A stretch of DNA of 64,000 bases from Legionellales bacterium (GTDB lineage Bacteria > Pseudomonadota > Gammaproteobacteria > M30B25), in contig JBDOIW010000021.1 of assembly GCA_047404175.1 (NCBI GenBank), forward strand, positions 2,018-66,017, given 5' to 3'. Made by a program: the position numbers and the translations under genes. Below are positions 9,308 to 22,600 of the stretch, piece by piece (positions within the stretch are counted from its first letter, which is position 1; each line of letters begins with the position of its first letter). The notes beneath the pieces are model-generated. The model worked only from the letters and a program-made list of their open reading frames with translations. It did no database searches and was not told the origin of the DNA.

Positions 9308-9859
9308 ATGGTTGAAGAAAATTTAAAAAAAGATGAATCTATCACTACCACTAGTGTAGCTCAAGATGACAAGGTAGGCTCTTCGTCTTCCAGTCGTGGT
9401 GCTTCTGCTAGTGTGGATCAAGATGACAAGGGTGGATCTTCGTCGTCTAGTAGTGATGTCTCTGCACCAGCAGTGAAGCAAAAAGGCCGTTCAAAGGGTA
9501 AACAGGTTTATGAAGGTGCAGCTTACATCTCCTGCGGGTTCAATAACACCTTAGTCACTATTACAGATGCCCGTGGTAACACGCTGGCATGGTCCTCTTC
9601 AGGTAAATGTGGCTTTAAAGGCGCAAAAAAGAGTACCCCTTATGCTGGACAAATGGTTGCCTCTGATGCTGCAAAAATTGTCACTGATCCTAAAACAGGG
9701 TGCGGTATGGAGCGAATCAAAGTTTACGTCAAAGGTTTTGGTTCATCAAGAGACTCAGCAATTCGTGCAATTGCAAGTTTCCTCAAGGTAACAGCTTTAA
9801 TTGACACAACAGGTGTTCCATTTAATGGATGCCGTAATTCTAAAATTCGTCGGGTGTAG
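9308..9859 (+). CDS. rpsK: 30S ribosomal protein S11 with an unusual ~55-aa Ser-rich N-terminal extension
   Basis: Residues ~60-183 match S11 ([44 protein letters not shown]...[11 protein letters not shown]). The extension contains a 57-nt tandem duplication. Confidence 0.85.
9356..9469 (+). repeat. Perfect-length 57-nt tandem duplication (2 copies, ~75% identical) encoding [19 protein letters not shown] / [19 protein letters not shown] in the rpsK 5' extension
   Basis: Direct comparison of 9356-9412 against 9413-9469. Confidence 0.8.
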
Positions 9860-9870
9860 GAGAAAATTTC

Positions 9871-10488
9871 GTGGGAAGATATACAGGTCCAAAGTGTAAG
9901 TTATCACGTAGAGAGGGTACTGACTTAGAACACAAAAGTCGTTTGCGTGCCGGTGGTAAGCCAAAGTTTGACGTCAACAAGAAGCCAGGTGTTGGCGGCT
10001 CTGGCCGTCTAACTGATTATGGTGTTCAGTTTCGTATGAAGCAGCTTGTTAAGCGTTACTACCTTGTCTCTGAAAAGCAATTTAGAGCCTATTACACGAT
10101 TGCTGATCGTCGCAAAGGTACAACGGGAACAGAGTTGCTCAGACTATTGGAATCACGGCTAGATAACGTCGTTTATCGATTGGGTTTTGCATCTACTCGC
10201 TCAGAAGCAAGACAGTTAGTAAGCCATAAAGCTATTTTAGTGAATGGTGAGCTAGTTAACATCGCTTCATACCGTGTTCGTCCCGGTGATGTTGTGTCTG
10301 TACGAGAGCGTGCTCAAAAACAAATGCGCATTCAAGCGGCAATGGAGCTTAATCAAACAGTTGATTTATCTCCATGGTTATCACTGAATAGCAAAGAAAT
10401 GTCGGGTGTCTTTAAAGCCCATCCAGAATTAGAAGATTTACCTGCTGTCTTTAAGGTAAATCTTGTTGTTGAATTATACTCGAAGTAG
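9871..10488 (+). CDS. rpsD: 30S ribosomal protein S4 (GTG start)
   Basis: [19 protein letters not shown]...[40 protein letters not shown] matches S4. Confidence 0.95.
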
Positions 10489-10498
10489 AGGTGATCAC

Positions 10499-11506
10499 AT
10501 GACAGAGACTACAGAAAATCAAGCTAATGTCCAAGATATATACCAGGACATGCTTATTCCAAACAAAGTCAAGATTGACGAGCTTGGATTGCATAGTTAT
10601 AAAATCACACTTGAGCCATTCGAACGTGGTTATGGTTACACTCTAGGTGCAGCATTGCGTCGTATTTTGCTCTCATCTATGCCAGGAGTTGCTCCTGTTG
10701 AGATGACGATTCAAGGTGTTCAGCATGAATATAGCACTCATGAAGCGCTAAAAGAAGATATTGTTGATGTTGTACTCAACGTTAAGGATCTTTCTTTTGA
10801 AATGCATGGTCGTGATGAAGCAACTGTTTCATTAAAAAAGTCAGAACAAGGTCCCGTTACAGGCAATGACTTTGATTTGCCTGAAGGTATTATGCTTGCA
10901 AACCCTGACTTAGTTATCGCTCATCTTACCGCGGACAAGCCCCTGGAAATATCAATTAAGATAAAGCGCGGGTATGGTTACGAGCCTGTCTCAGTAAGAA
11001 GAAGTTCTGAAGAGTCATCAACTAAAGCTATTGGTGCCATCCAATTAGATTCAAGTTTTAGTCCTGTCACTAAAGTGCATTATGATGTTGAGAATGCTCG
11101 AGTGGGTAACAAAACTAATCTCGACAAATTAATCATGACTGTTGAGACGGATGGTACTATCAGTCCTGACGAGATTATTAGACGGGCTGCGACTATTCTT
11201 CAACATCAGCTATCTGTTTTTGCTGAGTTGCAAAAAGAATCGGCTTCTGCTTCTTCGAGCAAGGAGCCAACAATGGATCCTATCTTACTCAGACCTGTGG
11301 ATGATCTTGAGCTCACTGTGCGTGCAGCGAATTGTCTCAAAGCTGAACAAATTATATACATTGGTGACTTGGTGTTACGCACCGAAAGTGACCTTATGAA
11401 AACACCCAACCTAGGTCGAAAATCACTCACTGAAATTAAGTCAGTCTTGATGAGTCATGGTCTTGCTTTGGGTATGAACATTGACAACTGGCCTCCAGTT
11501 GAATAA
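10499..11506 (+). CDS. rpoA: DNA-directed RNA polymerase alpha subunit. Start taken at ATG 10499 (MTETTEN...) rather than the track start at 10463.
   Basis: [31 protein letters not shown]...[33 protein letters not shown] matches RpoA. GAGGTG Shine-Dalgarno before 10499. Confidence 0.95.
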
Positions 11507-11527: not shown

Positions 11528-11932
11528 ATGCGACACTTAAAAGCCAGCAGAAAATTTGGTAGAACTTCTAGTCATCGTGAGGCTATGTTTGCCAACATGA
11601 GTAATTCACTGTTTACTCATGAGTTAATTAAGACAACGCTTACCAAAGCTAAAGAGTTGCGTCGAGTTGCAGAGCCGATGATTACTCGTGCAAAAGTAGA
11701 CTCGCTTCACAACAGACGCTTATTACTTGCAAAATTGCAAGATAAAGCTGTGGTAGAGAAGCTACTTAAAGATTTAGGTCCTCGTTACCATGCAAGGCCA
11801 GGCGGTTACTTGCGTATTATTAAATGTGGCTTTCGTCCTGGTGATAATGCCCCTATGGCTTATGTTGAGCTTGTAGGTCGTCAGGTTAAGTCTGAGGATG
11901 CAGTTGTCGAAGAGGTAAAAGAAGAGTCTTAA
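11528..11932 (+). CDS. rplQ: 50S ribosomal protein L17
   Basis: [24 protein letters not shown]...[25 protein letters not shown] matches L17. Confidence 0.95.
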
Positions 11933-11950
11933 TTCCAGAATTTGGCACAT

Positions 11951-11986
11951 AAAAAAAGCTGTCTACTAGAGACAGCTTTTTTTTTA
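11951..11986. terminator. Rho-independent (bidirectional) terminator ending the alpha operon
   Basis: An A-run, then stem AGCTGTCT / AGACAGCT (8 bp perfect, loop ACTAG), then T9. Confidence 0.85.
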
Positions 11987-11996
11987 CCTATTAGAT

Positions 11997-12116
11997 TCAT
12001 TCTTCATCCATATCCATGTCGTCGACTTCATCTAATAAGTCATCATCGATGTCGATAAGTTCTTCATCAATGTCAATATCCATTAAATCGTCATCCATCA
12101 TGTTTTCATCTGTCAT
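11997..12116 (-). CDS. Candidate small ORF encoding a 39-aa extremely acidic peptide (MTDENMMDDDLMDIDIDEELIDIDDDLLDEVDDMDMDEE)
   Basis: Hand-translated minus-strand ORF with a GAGGA Shine-Dalgarno ~8 nt upstream of the ATG. No homology recognised, and it could be spurious. Confidence 0.25.
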   Translation of the reverse strand: MTDENMMDDDLMDIDIDEELIDIDDDLLDEVDDMDMDEE

Positions 12117-12434
12117 TGTAGAGTCCTCATGGTTAAATACTACAGTTGAATTATAGTCGTTTTCTTTATTTTGTATGGTTCTAAGTATGCTTGTGATCTG
12201 TCTTTGATTTTTTCAGCATACATGCCGCAGAATTGATGACAAATCCATGGTCCTCGAGAAAAAAGACCAATTCGGGAGTTATGTGTGGTTGCGGGGAAGT
12301 CTTCGTGTTATATGATGACCCTCAAGTCGCACAAAAAAGAGCTTGCGCTGTGGCCAAGATAGGTGATGATTTCAGCGAACAGAGAAGCTAGGGATAAGAT
12401 TCTAGCACTATGTTTTATGGCATACTATTGGTTG

Positions 12435-12725
12435 CTTGAGTATACAGTAGCACAAGCTTAGCACGCGTTATTGCTGACTTGAGTATATAGAAGCGCATGC
12501 ATGAGCTTAGCTCGCGTTATTGCTGACTTGAGTATATAGATGCACAAGCATAAGCCTAGCTCATGTAATTGGTGGCTTTGAGTATACAGTAGCACAAGCT
12601 TAGCATGCGTTATTGCTGACTTGAGTATATAGATGCACAAGCATAAGCCTAGATCACTTAATTGATAGCTTGAGTATATAGATACATAAGAACAAACTTA
12701 GCTCACGTTTTACTATGCCTTAACC
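12435..12725. repeat. Intergenic tandem array of six degenerate 43-51-nt direct repeats (unit begins CTTGAGTATA[C/T]AG). Organised as two ~143-nt higher-order copies, A-B-B' / A-B-B''.
   Basis: Units start at 12435, 12478, 12527, 12577, 12620 and 12669. Units 1 and 4 differ by one base. Units 3 and 5 are near-identical over ~35 nt. Confidence 0.8.
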
Positions 12726-12750
12726 TATGGCTCAAATATGTACAGGGTGA

Positions 12751-13215
12751 CTAGAATGGAATATCATCATCATTGAATGGAGCACCCTCAGTTGCTGCTG
12801 CTGCAGGCTGTGGGGTAGAAGATGCCGGAGTACTTGCTGTTTGATTGTATTGGTTGGGTGCTTCTTGAGCTCCTCCCATACGACTGTCGAGCATTTGCAT
12901 CTCGTTGGCGATAATTTCAGTAGTATAGCGATCTTGACCACTTTGATCTTGCCATTTACGTGTGCGAAGGCTACCTTCAATATAAAGCTTACTTCCTTTT
13001 TTAACATACTCGCCTACGATTTCAGCGAGGCGGTTGAAGAAGACTATTCTATGCCACTCAGTGCGCTCGTTTGACTCACCTGTGGCCTTATCTTTCCAGG
13101 ATTCACTAGTAGCAATAGAAACATTGGCAACAGCGCTGTTGTTGGCGGTGTATCGTATTTCAGGATCGTTTCCTGTATTACCTACGATGATTACTTTATT
13201 AATACCTCTTGCCAT
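12751..13215 (-). CDS. ssb: Single-stranded DNA-binding protein
   Basis: [23 protein letters not shown]... OB-fold core, Gln/Pro/Ala-rich linker and the canonical C-terminal DDDIPF tail. Confidence 0.95.
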
Positions 13216-13218
13216 AGT

Positions 13219-14601
13219 TTACTCCTCACTTAATTTTCTTTGCTTTAGCCAATCGGCAAGGATTGAATCTAAAGAAGGTCTATTCACCATTCTACTGTCA
13301 AATTTTAAATAAGCAATACCGTCATCAGACATAATTTTGGCTTCATACAGGCCTTTTATGGAAAGTAGATGTTGCTCAAGTTGTTGACAGCTTCGAGATG
13401 ATTGTAAATTAACTTTGACAAGATAACTACTTAGGTAAGACGGCTGCTTCATAGGAAGAGTTATCATAAGCCATAATACGCATAAACCCATGACGAAAAA
13501 AAGAAGATGCTGTGGATCAAAATAAGTCAATATAATGCCGCCAAAATAGGCGCCGGCAAATGATCCTAGAAACTGTGAACTAGAAAAAATACCCATGGCC
13601 GTGCCTTTTCTATTGGCTGGGGTAATTTTTGACACAAGAGAGGGGAGGAATGACTCGCCAAGCCCAAAAGCTGAGAAGAAAATGAGGAGTGCCATTATCA
13701 CAGTAAGCTTTGTAGGGGAAACAAGAGAGAGTAAAAGCACAGAGGCTATAAGAGCTATAATAACGCCCAGAAGCATTCCTTTGATGATACGTTGCTTTTC
13801 GCCTACAAATGTTCCTCCAAGCATAATGGGTAGTGCGCCTATAAGTGCCGGAGCGTAGATGTCTAAGCTAGAGGATGCTGAGGCTTGTGCAACCATCTGG
13901 GGAAGAACAAGGAAAACAGCAGTGAGTAGCGCGTGGAGTGTAAAAATACCAAATGCTAAGCGTATTAGTTCTTTCTGAGCAAGCATAGATTGTAGTTCTG
14001 ATAGCATAACACTGGTATCTCGATGAAAGGACTCACATTCAGGGTTTGGGACTGCCGTGTGAAGTAAAATTAGGCTGATAATAGCCATACCACTTGTGAC
14101 CCAGAAAATGCCGGATAGACCACTGTGGCTATAGATACTTGAGCTAAGAAGCATGGCTAGCCCAAATGATAAGGCGATATTAAGTCCTACTATGGCCATG
14201 GCTTGAGACCGTTCTTCTTCAGGTGTGATGTCAGCGATGAAAGCCAGAGTGGTGGATCCAATGGCACCCATGCCTTGGAGAGACCTGCCAACAATAAGGC
14301 CCATTATGCTAGATGAGAGGGCGGCTACAACACTGCCAAGAAGAAATAGCAGTAGCCCTAGGGTCATAATGTTTTTGCGCCCATAACGATCAGATAGTAA
14401 GCCAAATGGCATCTGTAATGCTGCTTGAAAGAGTCCATAGATACCTAATGCAAGACCTGCTAGAAAAGGTGTTACGCTTGGTATGTCTTGGGTTGCCAGT
14501 GACAAAACTGGCATTAATAAGAACATTCCAAGCATGCGTGTAGCAAAAATACCAGCTAATGACAGGATGCCCGATCGATTTGTCCATGACATGGTGTTCA
14601 C
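13219..14601 (-). CDS. MFS-family transporter (12 TM) with a ~70-aa soluble C-terminal tail
   Basis: 460 aa with hydrophobic helix periodicity and the MFS-like motif GLLSDRYGRKNIM. Ends 4 nt upstream of ssb. Confidence 0.7.
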   Translation of the reverse strand: MNTMSWTNRSGILSLAGIFATRMLGMFLLMPVLSLATQDIPSVTPFLAGLALGIYGLFQAALQMPFGLLSDRYGRKNIMTLGLLLFLLGSVVAALSSSIMGLIVGRSLQGMGAIGSTTLAFIADITPEEERSQAMAIVGLNIALSFGLAMLLSSSIYSHSGLSGIFWVTSGMAIISLILLHTAVPNPECESFHRDTSVMLSELQSMLAQKELIRLAFGIFTLHALLTAVFLVLPQMVAQASASSSLDIYAPALIGALPIMLGGTFVGEKQRIIKGMLLGVIIALIASVLLLSLVSPTKLTVIMALLIFFSAFGLGESFLPSLVSKITPANRKGTAMGIFSSSQFLGSFAGAYFGGIILTYFDPQHLLFFVMGLCVLWLMITLPMKQPSYLSSYLVKVNLQSSRSCQQLEQHLLSIKGLYEAKIMSDDGIAYLKFDSRMVNRPSLDSILADWLKQRKLSEE

Positions 14602-19639: not shown

Positions 19640-22600
19640 GTGAGAATTAATATGCGTTTTAGATTTACCACTGGTATGTTGAAATCTTTGATAGTACACA
19701 ATAAATTTTTTGATCAAGCAACAATGAATAAGATTGGAGATATTGAGGTTATTAAAGCAAACAAAGAGACAATACTTAGTTCAATACCAGAAGGACAGCA
19801 AGCCTCAGCGGTTCTATTTTTGATGATGATGGGAGTGGTTAATCCACGTGGAACAAAAAAGAATGACCTGATAGAAATGGCCCAACAGTTGCACGGAAAA
19901 GTAGGTGTAGATGTAGAAATGGGTCCGGAAACCACTTTATTGGGGAATAGTACAGGAGGTCAGGATAATATGTATAGATCATGGGAGGGTTGTTATAGGG
20001 AGTGTCTAGAACAAGAGATCATCAGTAATGAGGAGGCACGTAATCTCATAAGTAAAATTAAATCTTTTGTGAATAGACATGGCGCGTCTGTGAGTTATCT
20101 ATTAGAAGAAGAAAATGAGCGGCTGAGTCAATCGCTTGCACCAAAAACAGCATCAGCACCAGCACGAGCACCAGCACGAGCACCAGCACGAGCACGAGCA
20201 CCAGCACGAGCACCAGCACCAGCACGAGCACCAGCACGAGCACCAACACCAACATCAGCACCAGCATCAAAAACAGCACTATCACCAGCACCAAAAATTG
20301 GTAGTAAAGGTCAGGGTAAAAGCGAAGTAAATGACAACCTGAAAAAAAGTTTTGAACAATATTTTAACTATATAAAACAACGAAAATATGGTGATGCCAT
20401 CAAAATATTAGACAGCATTCCTCTTCCCCCTTATTTAAAAAATATACTTATTCCAGTTAAACAAGCAGATGATCAAGAAGTAAAAGTAAGTCAATTAGAG
20501 AAGTTATATTCTTCATTAGGGGATAATAAAGTTGAAGCGATAGACTTTCAAAGACAATATATCACGGCCATGCTTGATGATGACAAGAAAGAAGCGGAAT
20601 CACTTTTTTCTGACAAAAAAGCATATCATGAACAATTAACTGGTGTCTCCAAGGGTTGGGAATCACAATTTAGTCACGAGAATGATCAGTATGACTTAAA
20701 AAAACATATTCAGGTGACTTGTTCACATCTTCGCCCTGCGTTTGATAGCTTGGATCAAAAACGATTACAGAAAATGTTCTTAAATGCGCTTGAAACTAAC
20801 CCTGATGCTGAAAAAGCTATAAATGCAGCCCAAAAAATCCCAGTCGATAAAGCTACAGGTCTATCTCTGAACACAGGTGCTATTACTGATATTCACGACC
20901 TAATTCATTCAAACAACACTAGCGAAGGCAAAGATAAGTTGTTAAGTTTTGTATCATCTGGAGGCCTAGGACAAGCCTCATCTGGAGGCCAAGCAAAAGC
21001 AGGCTTTACTAACTACCTTCTTGATAAGAATGTAACCCCTCCACTTTTTAAAAATTGGACTGTAGATCAACTTAATAGACTCTATCAAGAGCTAGGGAGG
21101 GAGTTGGGTCAAGGTAATAGGCTAGGAGACAGAAAGGCATCACCAAAGAACCAACGCTGGACAACAAAACGATTTCGTCAAGCTTTCTCTCGAAAAAAAA
21201 TAGACAGGAATGACCTGGTGCGAAAGATATTGCAACGTGCTCAAGTTGTACATGCAGCAGAATATTTTAATCAGGAAAAGAGCGCAGTTAAATCCCAAGA
21301 AAGTTATCCCAACATGGCTGCAGCTCTTAAGGAAAGAGAGGCTAGTGAGGTTAAAAATGAATTGAGTGCCAGAGAAGTAGAACAAAAGCGTATCACAGAC
21401 GCTGCCACAGCTGCTCCAGAGACTCCGTCTCTAAGGAGTTTATGTGAAGAATACAAAACTAAAAGAAGCAAGAGTAAAAGCCCGTCTCTTACACATCAAT
21501 TGGACCCCGAAAAATCCAATATTCTAAAAAATCTCGATAAGATGTTCTCAGATGAGACTGTTCCTAACGCCACTAATGAACTTACAGAACTTGGTCTTGA
21601 TGATAAGAAAATGATTTTACGTGATATATTGGACCTAAAGTCGGGGGGGCGGAAGGGGGCCACAGTTGACGTACAAATAAAAGAAGAAGTTCTTAAAACA
21701 GCGCCAGCGAGAGCCTTAAAAGCTTTACTTTGGAATATTACGAAGGCTGTTCCAGAAGTCGACATGGAGGAGGAAGAAATAACAAGAGTAGTCGACATGA
21801 AGAAGGTAGAAATAACAAGAGCTAGTAGATTGAAGGTTGGTGGAACACGACCGCTGCCGCCAGTATCACAAGCACTAACAAAACAACGCCAACGTATACA
21901 GAAAGCCATGAAAAGCTTATTGACGTTATACGAGAGCTGTAGTTCTAACGGAGAAGAATTGGAAAAAAAATTAAAAGCATGCCAATTAGGTAAGTCTCAT
22001 AAGGCAGCTTTGTATGTTCATGTTCTTGAAAAACAACCCGCAGTAGAGGGTCAGGCGAACAGTTATACATCTTCAGCAATCGTATATGCCTTCTATGGGA
22101 AGAGTTTAAAGTCACTACTAGGTCAACTCGCTACTACTCAGCCGTCTGACCAGGAACAAATAATTGGAAAAGTGAAGTTACTCCTAAAACAATGTGCAGC
22201 GTATACTAATAAAAAGGGTGGAACTTTGGAACAAACACTTAGAAGCATGGACTTCGGAGATAAAAGGAAGACGATGCTTGTGGAAAGAGTTTTTGGGCAG
22301 AAACCCTTTAAAAAGGCAGGTGAGCAGTATGGTTGCGGGCATATTGCTTCCCTTGTAGAAGCAGGTCCTCTTCCTTCCACACAAAAATCAGCTAGTCAAC
22401 AGCAAACCAGCTTGAAAGGCATGTTCGACAGAATAGATGACGATGGTGAAAAAGATGTTTTTTTGCGAAAACTCCAGGAGTTGCTTAATCAAGGATCAGT
22501 TGAAGAATATGAAAAAACAAGGGAAAATCTGATAGAGTCTGACCCGCAGCTAGATGGGGTTCTGCCAGAGACCCCAGGGCTCTTTGAGAACATGCTTGCA

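Follow-up and report, generated by a model that had tools for sequence, protein, structure and literature searches.

Between rplQ, the last gene of the alpha operon, and ssb, the 64-kb stretch of DNA analysed here (in the following, the window) carries a series of short, similar sequences arranged head-to-tail, which raises the question of what this array is and whether it serves a function. From the letters alone it had been proposed that the array may represent iteron-like protein-binding sites, a VNTR or minisatellite locus, or a structured non-coding RNA. The analysis reported here favours the second of these: the array, situated 3' of ssb, is likely to be a non-coding minisatellite (VNTR) peculiar to one lineage, which was probably remodelled by slippage or unequal recombination and is probably neutral.

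The source organism is an uncultured, deep-branching gammaproteobacterium, whose closest SSB among the species representatives of the genome collection is 68% identical and whose nearest named RpoA, that of Candidatus Paracoxiella cheracis, is 58% identical. Assemblies that contain the lineage come from Logan, ENA (Tara among them) and JGI, and a part of them are labelled marine; the locus was recovered from other assemblies by exact-protein look-ups.

Structure of the repeat array

The array consists of six direct units of 42-51 nt (Table 1), all of which share the core (C/T)TTGAGTATA(C/T)AG. When the 13-mer CTTGAGTATAYAG was searched in the 64-kb window with at most one mismatch, 6 matches were obtained (12435, 12478, 12527, 12577, 12620 and 12669), all on the + strand, as compared to 0.18 expected, and none of 100 shuffled sequences reached this number; outside of the array the same pattern has no further match in the 64 kb. 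Tandem Repeats Finder identified a single array at 12427-12709 with periods of 49 nt (5.4 copies, 74% matches, 12449-12709), 93 nt (1.9 copies, 90% matches) and 142 nt (2.0 copies, 84% matches, 12427-12705), and a second repeat search agreed with it in register. Pattern matching and both repeat searches hence confirmed the six-copy direct repeat of the original prediction. The two super-repeats of ~143 nt with the layout A-B-B' and A-B-B'' described therein were likewise recovered, with a length of 142 nt, though the array is more mosaic than this layout conveys: a 45-nt stretch across a unit junction is present twice, in addition to the 93-nt period. Units 1 and 4, which had been described as near-identical, differ at a single position upon direct reading of their sequences.

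With a profile built from nine units, nhmmer identified the six full units and a half unit at 12684-12709. Read on the - strand, each unit opens with CTATATACTCAAG-YCANCAATAA, followed by 20-25 nt of more variable sequence, and every unit has the orientation of ssb and of the small acidic ORF that follows the array on this strand. The units abut each other, the stretches between the cores being themselves repeated; they are old and diverged (~65-90% alike), and they are not palindromic according to the repeat search.

Table 1. Coordinates and strands of the array, its units and the neighbouring features in the window and, for the acidic ORF, in related contigs
Feature	Position	Strand	Remarks
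rpoA	10463-11506	+	
rplQ (L17)	11528..11932	+	last gene of the alpha operon; PF01196, E = 4e-37
Bidirectional terminator hairpin	11951..11986	.	A-run, 8-bp stem, T-run; common to rplQ (+) and acidic ORF (-)
Hyper-acidic 39-aa ORF	11997..12116	-	gene that follows the array when the - strand is read; MTDENMMDDDLMDIDIDEELIDIDDDLLDEVDDMDMDEE
Conserved block upstream of acidic ORF	12117..12240	-	95% identity vs 85% at four-fold sites; promoter scan
Non-coding spacer, array to acidic-ORF promoter block	12241..12434	.	approximately neutral; frame-breaking indels
Whole tandem array	12427..12717	.	six units and partial ends still matching the unit profile; Tandem Repeats Finder, nhmmer
Unit 1	12435..12477	+	43 nt, type A, core CTTGAGTATACAG
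Unit 2	12478..12526	+	49 nt, core CTTGAGTATATAG
Unit 3	12527..12577	+	51 nt
Unit 4	12578..12619	+	42 nt, near-identical to unit 1
Unit 5	12620..12668	+	49 nt; first 33 nt including core equal unit 3
Unit 6	12669..12717	+	49 nt, adjoins ssb; orthologous to first unit of L082 and L087
ssb, 154 aa	12751..13215	-	PF00436, E = 4e-40; ORF list
MFS transporter	13219-14601	-	
Acidic ORF in L082	3001-3120	.	
Acidic ORF in L084	3365-3478	.	
Acidic ORF in L085	2685-2816	.	
Acidic ORF in L102	2782-2925	-	

Gene neighbourhood

When the - strand is read, ssb comes first, then the array and then the acidic ORF. Between the stop codon of ssb and the array lie 33 nt, and ~320 nt of non-coding DNA separate the array from the acidic ORF; beyond the MFS transporter gene follow an hpf-like gene and uvrA, both on the + strand. 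Within the 33-nt interval, neither the promoter scan nor reading of the sequence revealed a convincing intrinsic terminator, and as the array begins this close behind the stop codon on the same strand, it is probably transcribed together with ssb and as such probably forms part of the ssb 3' untranslated region. At the other end of the spacer, the hairpin between rplQ and the acidic ORF is kept in L082, L084, L085 and L102 and, in Rfam, matched terminator-type sRNAs weakly on either strand.

A 0.6-kb gap between the alpha operon and ssb had been described as non-coding, which holds for the array and for 12120-12434; the interval from rplQ to ssb does, however, contain the conserved 39-aa ORF on the - strand, which had not been mentioned. 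This hyper-acidic ORF is the more unusual feature of the spacer as compared to the array. It is kept in five lineages (the window, L082, L084, L085 and L102) with a length of 37-47 aa, possesses a GAGGA ribosome-binding site (Shine-Dalgarno) and differs between the window and L082 at only 3 positions, all of them synonymous. The encoded microprotein matches no Pfam or NCBIfam family, and a profile search returned only 2 matches among 5.8 billion proteins. That it might act as a DNA mimic or as a mimic of the SSB tail is pure speculation, prompted by its charge and its place beside ssb. Inside the ORF, at 12034-12078, a 21-nt periodicity (2.2 copies) stems from a repeated D-I/L-D peptide pattern. 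The conserved block upstream of the ORF harbours a TATAAT hexamer (12150-12155) and a TTGTCA-16-TATGCT site (12242-12215), and a TATAAT or TATACT hexamer is found ~25-50 nt before the start codon in L084, L085 and L102 as well; this block is probably the ORF's own promoter together with its 5' untranslated region.

Copy number among relatives

The original prediction had proposed to compare the locus across strains, and this comparison revealed the copy-number variation between relatives that it had asked for. While the window carries six units, three are found in L082 (SRR27444428) and four in L087 (ENA ERZ14208656). In L082/L099 the flanking genes are 93-96% identical to those of the window and the contig spans the locus, thereby documenting three units of 49 nt each, of which the middle one possesses a degenerate core (CTATAGACTCAG). 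L087 is L082-like, and its fourth unit is an exact 49-nt copy of its first. A further allele comes from Tara (L088), whose ssb is 94.6% identical on the DNA level and whose array has internal deletions of 18 nt and 11 nt, which take away half of the second core. Independent assemblies of close relatives thus carry 3, 4 and 6 units next to a deletion-bearing allele, which supports the minisatellite candidate. The array agrees with a bacterial VNTR or minisatellite in each of its defining properties: direct head-to-tail repeats with a unit of ~10-100 bp (six of 42-51 nt here), a copy number that differs among close relatives at the same locus, and gain or loss of whole units, L087 corresponding to L082 plus one exact 49-nt unit. 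The array of the window itself corresponds to the three-unit layout plus a block of ~142 nt.

For the window's own allele, further assemblies are available. In JGI contig 3300072015, ssb and the acidic ORF are 631 nt apart, as compared to 634 nt for the window, a distance consistent with six units. The Logan contigs of the same strain (SRR27444463; L001/L086 and L083) end inside the array, approaching it from either side, and their breaks fall at the 45-nt stretch that is present twice in the window. A repeat should interrupt a de Bruijn graph in just this way, and the internal duplication was thereby seen independently.

Sister lineages lack the array. In L084, L085 and L102, whose RpoA is 88, 82 and 83% identical, respectively, the order MFS-ssb-acidic ORF-rplQ is kept, and the search with the nine-unit profile found no array unit in them. 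Their spacer is 442 nt long in L084 and 248 nt in L085, and that of L084 contains a single TATAGTACTCAAG in the same orientation, which could be an ancestral single-copy site. In L103 (RpoA 66% identical) another neighbour follows rplQ. Among the GTDB species representatives, of which the best SSB is only 68% identical, none of the orthologous loci has the motif. Considered together, the comparison of relatives shows the array to be confined to a narrow lineage, to be at least as old as the split between the window and L082, and to undergo continuing change by whole units. Two separate observations concern the wider surroundings: in the relative GCA_018402195.1 (66% RpoA identity) an IcmF-family gene lies beside rplQ, and in an uncultured gammaproteobacterial MAG (L008, 6001-6862) ssb and rplQ are convergent and ~56 nt apart without a small ORF between them. 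The short gap of the latter identifies the large spacer and its contents as specific to the window's clade.

Divergence and origin of the array

Comparison of the window with L082 allowed the divergence of the array to be placed next to that of its surroundings. In the best alignment the array is 76% identical and the mid spacer (12241-12434) 80-87% identical in pieces, while four-fold degenerate sites of the neighbouring genes are 85.1%, the block just upstream of the acidic ORF 95% and codon positions 1 and 2 98.7% identical. The array hence evolves at or above the neutral rate, and no purifying selection is detectable on it as a whole. Within the units, the 13-nt core is better kept, with a mean pairwise identity of 0.91 among seven internal units as compared to 0.66 for the rest, a difference reached by 163 of 20000 column permutations. 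For the units of the window alone the difference is not significant (1622 of 20000 permutations), and the test is a weak one, because the units are kin by descent and their register was set by the core. The better-kept core may thus point to a degree of constraint. On the - strand, the initial 24 nt of the units (segment CTATATACTCAAGYCANCAATAA) are better conserved than the rest, though less so than the core. At least three units were kept across ~15% neutral divergence, which is long for useless repeats, though diverged units are less prone to deletion.

How the present alleles may have come about can be outlined as follows. An ancestral unit of ~49 nt would have been triplicated in the spacer before the lineages of the window and L082 split, after which the copies would have diverged, with one type losing 6 nt. 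Replication slippage or unequal recombination between units may then have caused re-duplication and deletion. In the lineage of the window, re-duplication would have given rise to the 93-nt and 142-nt super-repeats and thus to six units, whereas the four-unit allele of L087 could derive from slippage or unequal recombination and that of L088 appears to have been shaped by deletions. The biological effect of the array is most likely nil or incidental, in that the probable 3' untranslated region of ssb becomes longer and ssb comes to lie farther away from the acidic ORF.

Coding potential, known sites and further copies

The statement that no ORF of more than 60 codons explains the array proved right, as the sole ORF of at least 60 aa across the array (12458-12640, - strand, TTG start, 60 aa) is created by the repeat itself: relatives differ in unit number and the units do not come in multiples of 3 nt, which identifies it as a by-product. 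Next to the array, a 52-aa ORF at 12233-12391 (+) has no Pfam match and is broken in its frame by indels in L082. As to 12120-12434, the indels of 1, 1, 1, 3, 35 and 4 nt relative to L082 show this region to be non-coding, as had been assumed.

Several known types of site were considered for the units and rejected. Tandem sigma-70 promoters were not supported, since a scan of both strands detected none within the array, and inspection of the sequence around TATACT showed nothing like a -35 hexamer at a distance of 16-18 nt. A LexA/SOS box was considered because ssb and uvrA are in the neighbourhood; units 1 and 4 read CTGA-N9-ACAG, which is one base off the spacing of CTGT-N8-ACAG, and the other units lack the CAG. 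Inspection by eye also spoke against a sigma-54 promoter, TAGCACGCGTTATTGCT reading AG instead of GG and its spacer exceeding the required length by 1 nt, and revealed no match to the IHF, DnaA or dif consensus in the units. The idea that the unit is a paralogue of the acidic-ORF promoter region (CTATAAT..CAA) goes back to a short likeness, for which nhmmer gave no match at E <= 10. The array is not a CRISPR array, as had been stated, because its units lack unique spacers: the stretches between cores are repeated and the units contiguous. Iterons at an origin beside an initiator gene are likewise not what is found here, the neighbours being rpoA, rplQ, the acidic ORF, ssb, the MFS transporter gene, the hpf-like gene and uvrA; among the neighbouring genes identified, nothing resembles a replication initiator gene or an origin. 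For the broader candidate of iteron-like protein-binding sites, the better-kept 13-nt core speaks in favour, whereas the length and irregular spacing of the units, the partial loss of one core in the Tara allele and the divergence of the whole array at or above the neutral rate speak against it, which leaves such sites a possible minority reading.

Identical repeats dispersed as REP-like copies had been named as the outcome that would speak against a locus-specific array, and no such copies were encountered in the window, in related loci or in a metagenome scan. At E <= 10 the unit profile found no other copy in the 64-kb window, and none was found elsewhere in ~45 kb of related loci. Pattern and profile searches of the window and the related loci thus gave no indication of an element dispersed in the manner of MIRUs or REPs. 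A scan of metagenomes and viruses for two cores 28-40 nt apart returned 10 metagenome matches and 0 viral ones; these 10 are unrelated tandem repeats that have only the searched 12-mer in common with the array, the rest aligning no better than shuffled sequence. One of the repeats seen in marine metagenome contigs (ENA OREC01; L097 1-260 and L092 10200-10286) is a 43-nt satellite, GTTGAGTATATAGCATACTATGTCTAGAGTATGTACGCATTTT, with at least 6 copies, located in AT-rich DNA at contig ends; it has nothing but the 12-mer TTGAGTATATAG in common with the repeat of the window and is unrelated to it.

Alternative explanations

The repeat and its polymorphism, its confinement to a single locus in one narrow lineage, the lack of RNA structure and the rate of divergence are shown here, whereas neutrality and remodelling by slippage or recombination are inferred. 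The main rival to the neutral minisatellite, a minority alternative which we consider unlikely, is that the array is a set of copy-variable binding sites or a promoter tandem repeat on the - strand, with a regulator or RNA polymerase acting at the core CTATATACTCAAG and the number of units tuning the acidic ORF or the 3' end of ssb. The better conservation of the core and, less so, of the first 24 nt of the - strand unit would fit such a role, as would the common orientation of all units with ssb and the acidic ORF, the -10-like TATACT within the core (identical to TATAAT at 5 of 6 positions) and the one similar site in the same spacer of L084; furthermore, strain-variable promoter tandem repeats of 54-58 bp are on record (PMC12817950). 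However, the latter lie 12-29 bp upstream of their genes (PMC12817950), whereas the array lies ~320 nt upstream of the acidic ORF, which possesses its own, strongly conserved proximal TATAAT block, and sister lineages keep the gene order without the array. Within the units the scan found no two-hexamer promoter, their spacings of 42-51 nt are out of helical phase, half a core is lost in L088 and L082 has a degenerate core in its middle unit, while the divergence as a whole is neutral-like. A more far-reaching proposal, that the core of 13-24 nt is a true recognition site for a protein or RNA and the number of units a heritable tuning knob (contingency locus) for a clade-specific acidic microprotein, possibly a DNA or SSB-tail mimic, is regarded as improbable.

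A role on the RNA level would be conceivable in that the array, which on the strand of ssb starts 33 nt past its stop codon, is probably co-transcribed, so that the core would be present six times in an RNA, be it the ssb 3' untranslated region or a separate transcript that offers an sRNA or RNA-binding protein a sponge or landing pad or folds into a structured non-coding RNA. This is judged highly improbable, and the structured RNA listed as a candidate in the original prediction found no support: Rfam gave no match at gathering score when the window was searched in full, and none within the array when 11900-12800 was searched at E <= 10, the weak matches obtained there falling on the rplQ terminator and the acidic ORF, so that membership in any Rfam family of structured RNAs is not indicated. 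The folding energy is no better than that of dinucleotide shuffles (z = +0.70 and +1.14, one per strand), RNAalifold derived neither consensus structure nor covariation from the units (-1.7 and -0.9 kcal/mol), the array is missing from the sister species, no partner sequence is known and the divergence is neutral-like. Still less credence is given to the idea that the units are clustered copies of a dispersed short element (REP- or MITE-like). The DNA examined represents 64 kb of the genome, in which a low-density family could be missed, but the searches of the window (E <= 10), the related loci and the metagenome and viral sequences yielded no other copy, and the units are not palindromic. 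Equally far-fetched appears a copy number that is a mere artefact of short reads collapsing or expanding the repeat; while short-read assemblies do break at the array, with its inner 83 nt (~12540-12622) lying outside the same-strain Logan contigs, the units differ enough for unique placement, the spacer of the JGI contig matches that of the window in length, the Logan contigs break exactly at the duplicated 45-mer predicted from the window, and the contigs of L082 and L087 span or enter the array with differing unit contents.

Comparison with known repeat systems

Iterons typically measure ~17-22 bp, are regularly spaced and adjoin an origin as well as the gene for their cognate initiator. 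Like the iterons of plasmids and phages, the array is made of direct repeats with a conserved core, but its units are 42-51 nt long and irregularly spaced, it is chromosomal and located between ssb and the ribosomal protein operon, no rep gene was identified among its neighbours and it is missing from the sister species.

MIRUs constitute a family spread over dozens of loci per genome, and such a dispersal within one genome is said to have been described by Supply et al. in 1997 and 2000. The MIRU-VNTR of Mycobacterium tuberculosis and MLVA loci resemble the array in their intergenic, head-to-tail units of tens of bp, and for MIRU-VNTR the likeness extends to probable co-transcription with a neighbouring gene, strain-variable copy number and trouble in short-read assembly. 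In contrast to MIRUs, the array was seen at one locus, has no sequence relationship to them and consists of units that are diverged rather than near-identical. MIRUs have been described as mostly intergenic minisatellites whose copy-number variation is used in typing (PMC3635867).

A further point of comparison is provided by the M. tuberculosis genes dop, lpdA and cysG, for which imperfect promoter tandem repeats of ~54-58 bp were reported, their copy number being phase-variable even within sublineages (PMC12817950). These repeats are located 12-29 bp upstream of the genes and duplicate the actual promoter (PMC12817950). The array resembles them in having units of 42-51 nt upstream of a gene, on the same strand and with a -10-like hexamer, but is ~320 nt away from it; a conserved promoter block of its own precedes the gene in this interval, and the scan detected no two-hexamer promoter in the units. 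Measured against a promoter tandem repeat, each unit thus offers TATACT on the strand of the gene without a two-hexamer site, and the TATAAT block lies nearer to the ORF.

With the neutral minisatellite as the preferred reading, the locus matters little, being another bacterial minisatellite that could at most serve to tell strains apart within an uncultured lineage of marine gammaproteobacteria, though the array does explain why short-read contigs of the window organism break downstream of ssb. If the core were a binding site, a change in copy number would act as a simple switch on a conserved, uncharacterised acidic microprotein beside ssb.

Other repeats in the window

Repeats occur in coding sequences of the window as well. 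A 1005-aa ORF at 19640-22657 (+), which is without a Pfam domain, contains a repeat with periods of 12, 18 and 30 nt (20148-20293) that encodes (APAR)n. Within rpsK (9308-9859), which encodes a ribosomal protein S11 of 183 aa with an N-terminal extension, a 57-nt tandem repeat in two copies (9351-9465) encodes a Ser/Asp-rich motif of 19 aa inside this extension. S11 measures 164-173 aa in relatives and 131 aa in the more distant L103, and the N-terminal extension is therefore lineage-specific and variable in length.
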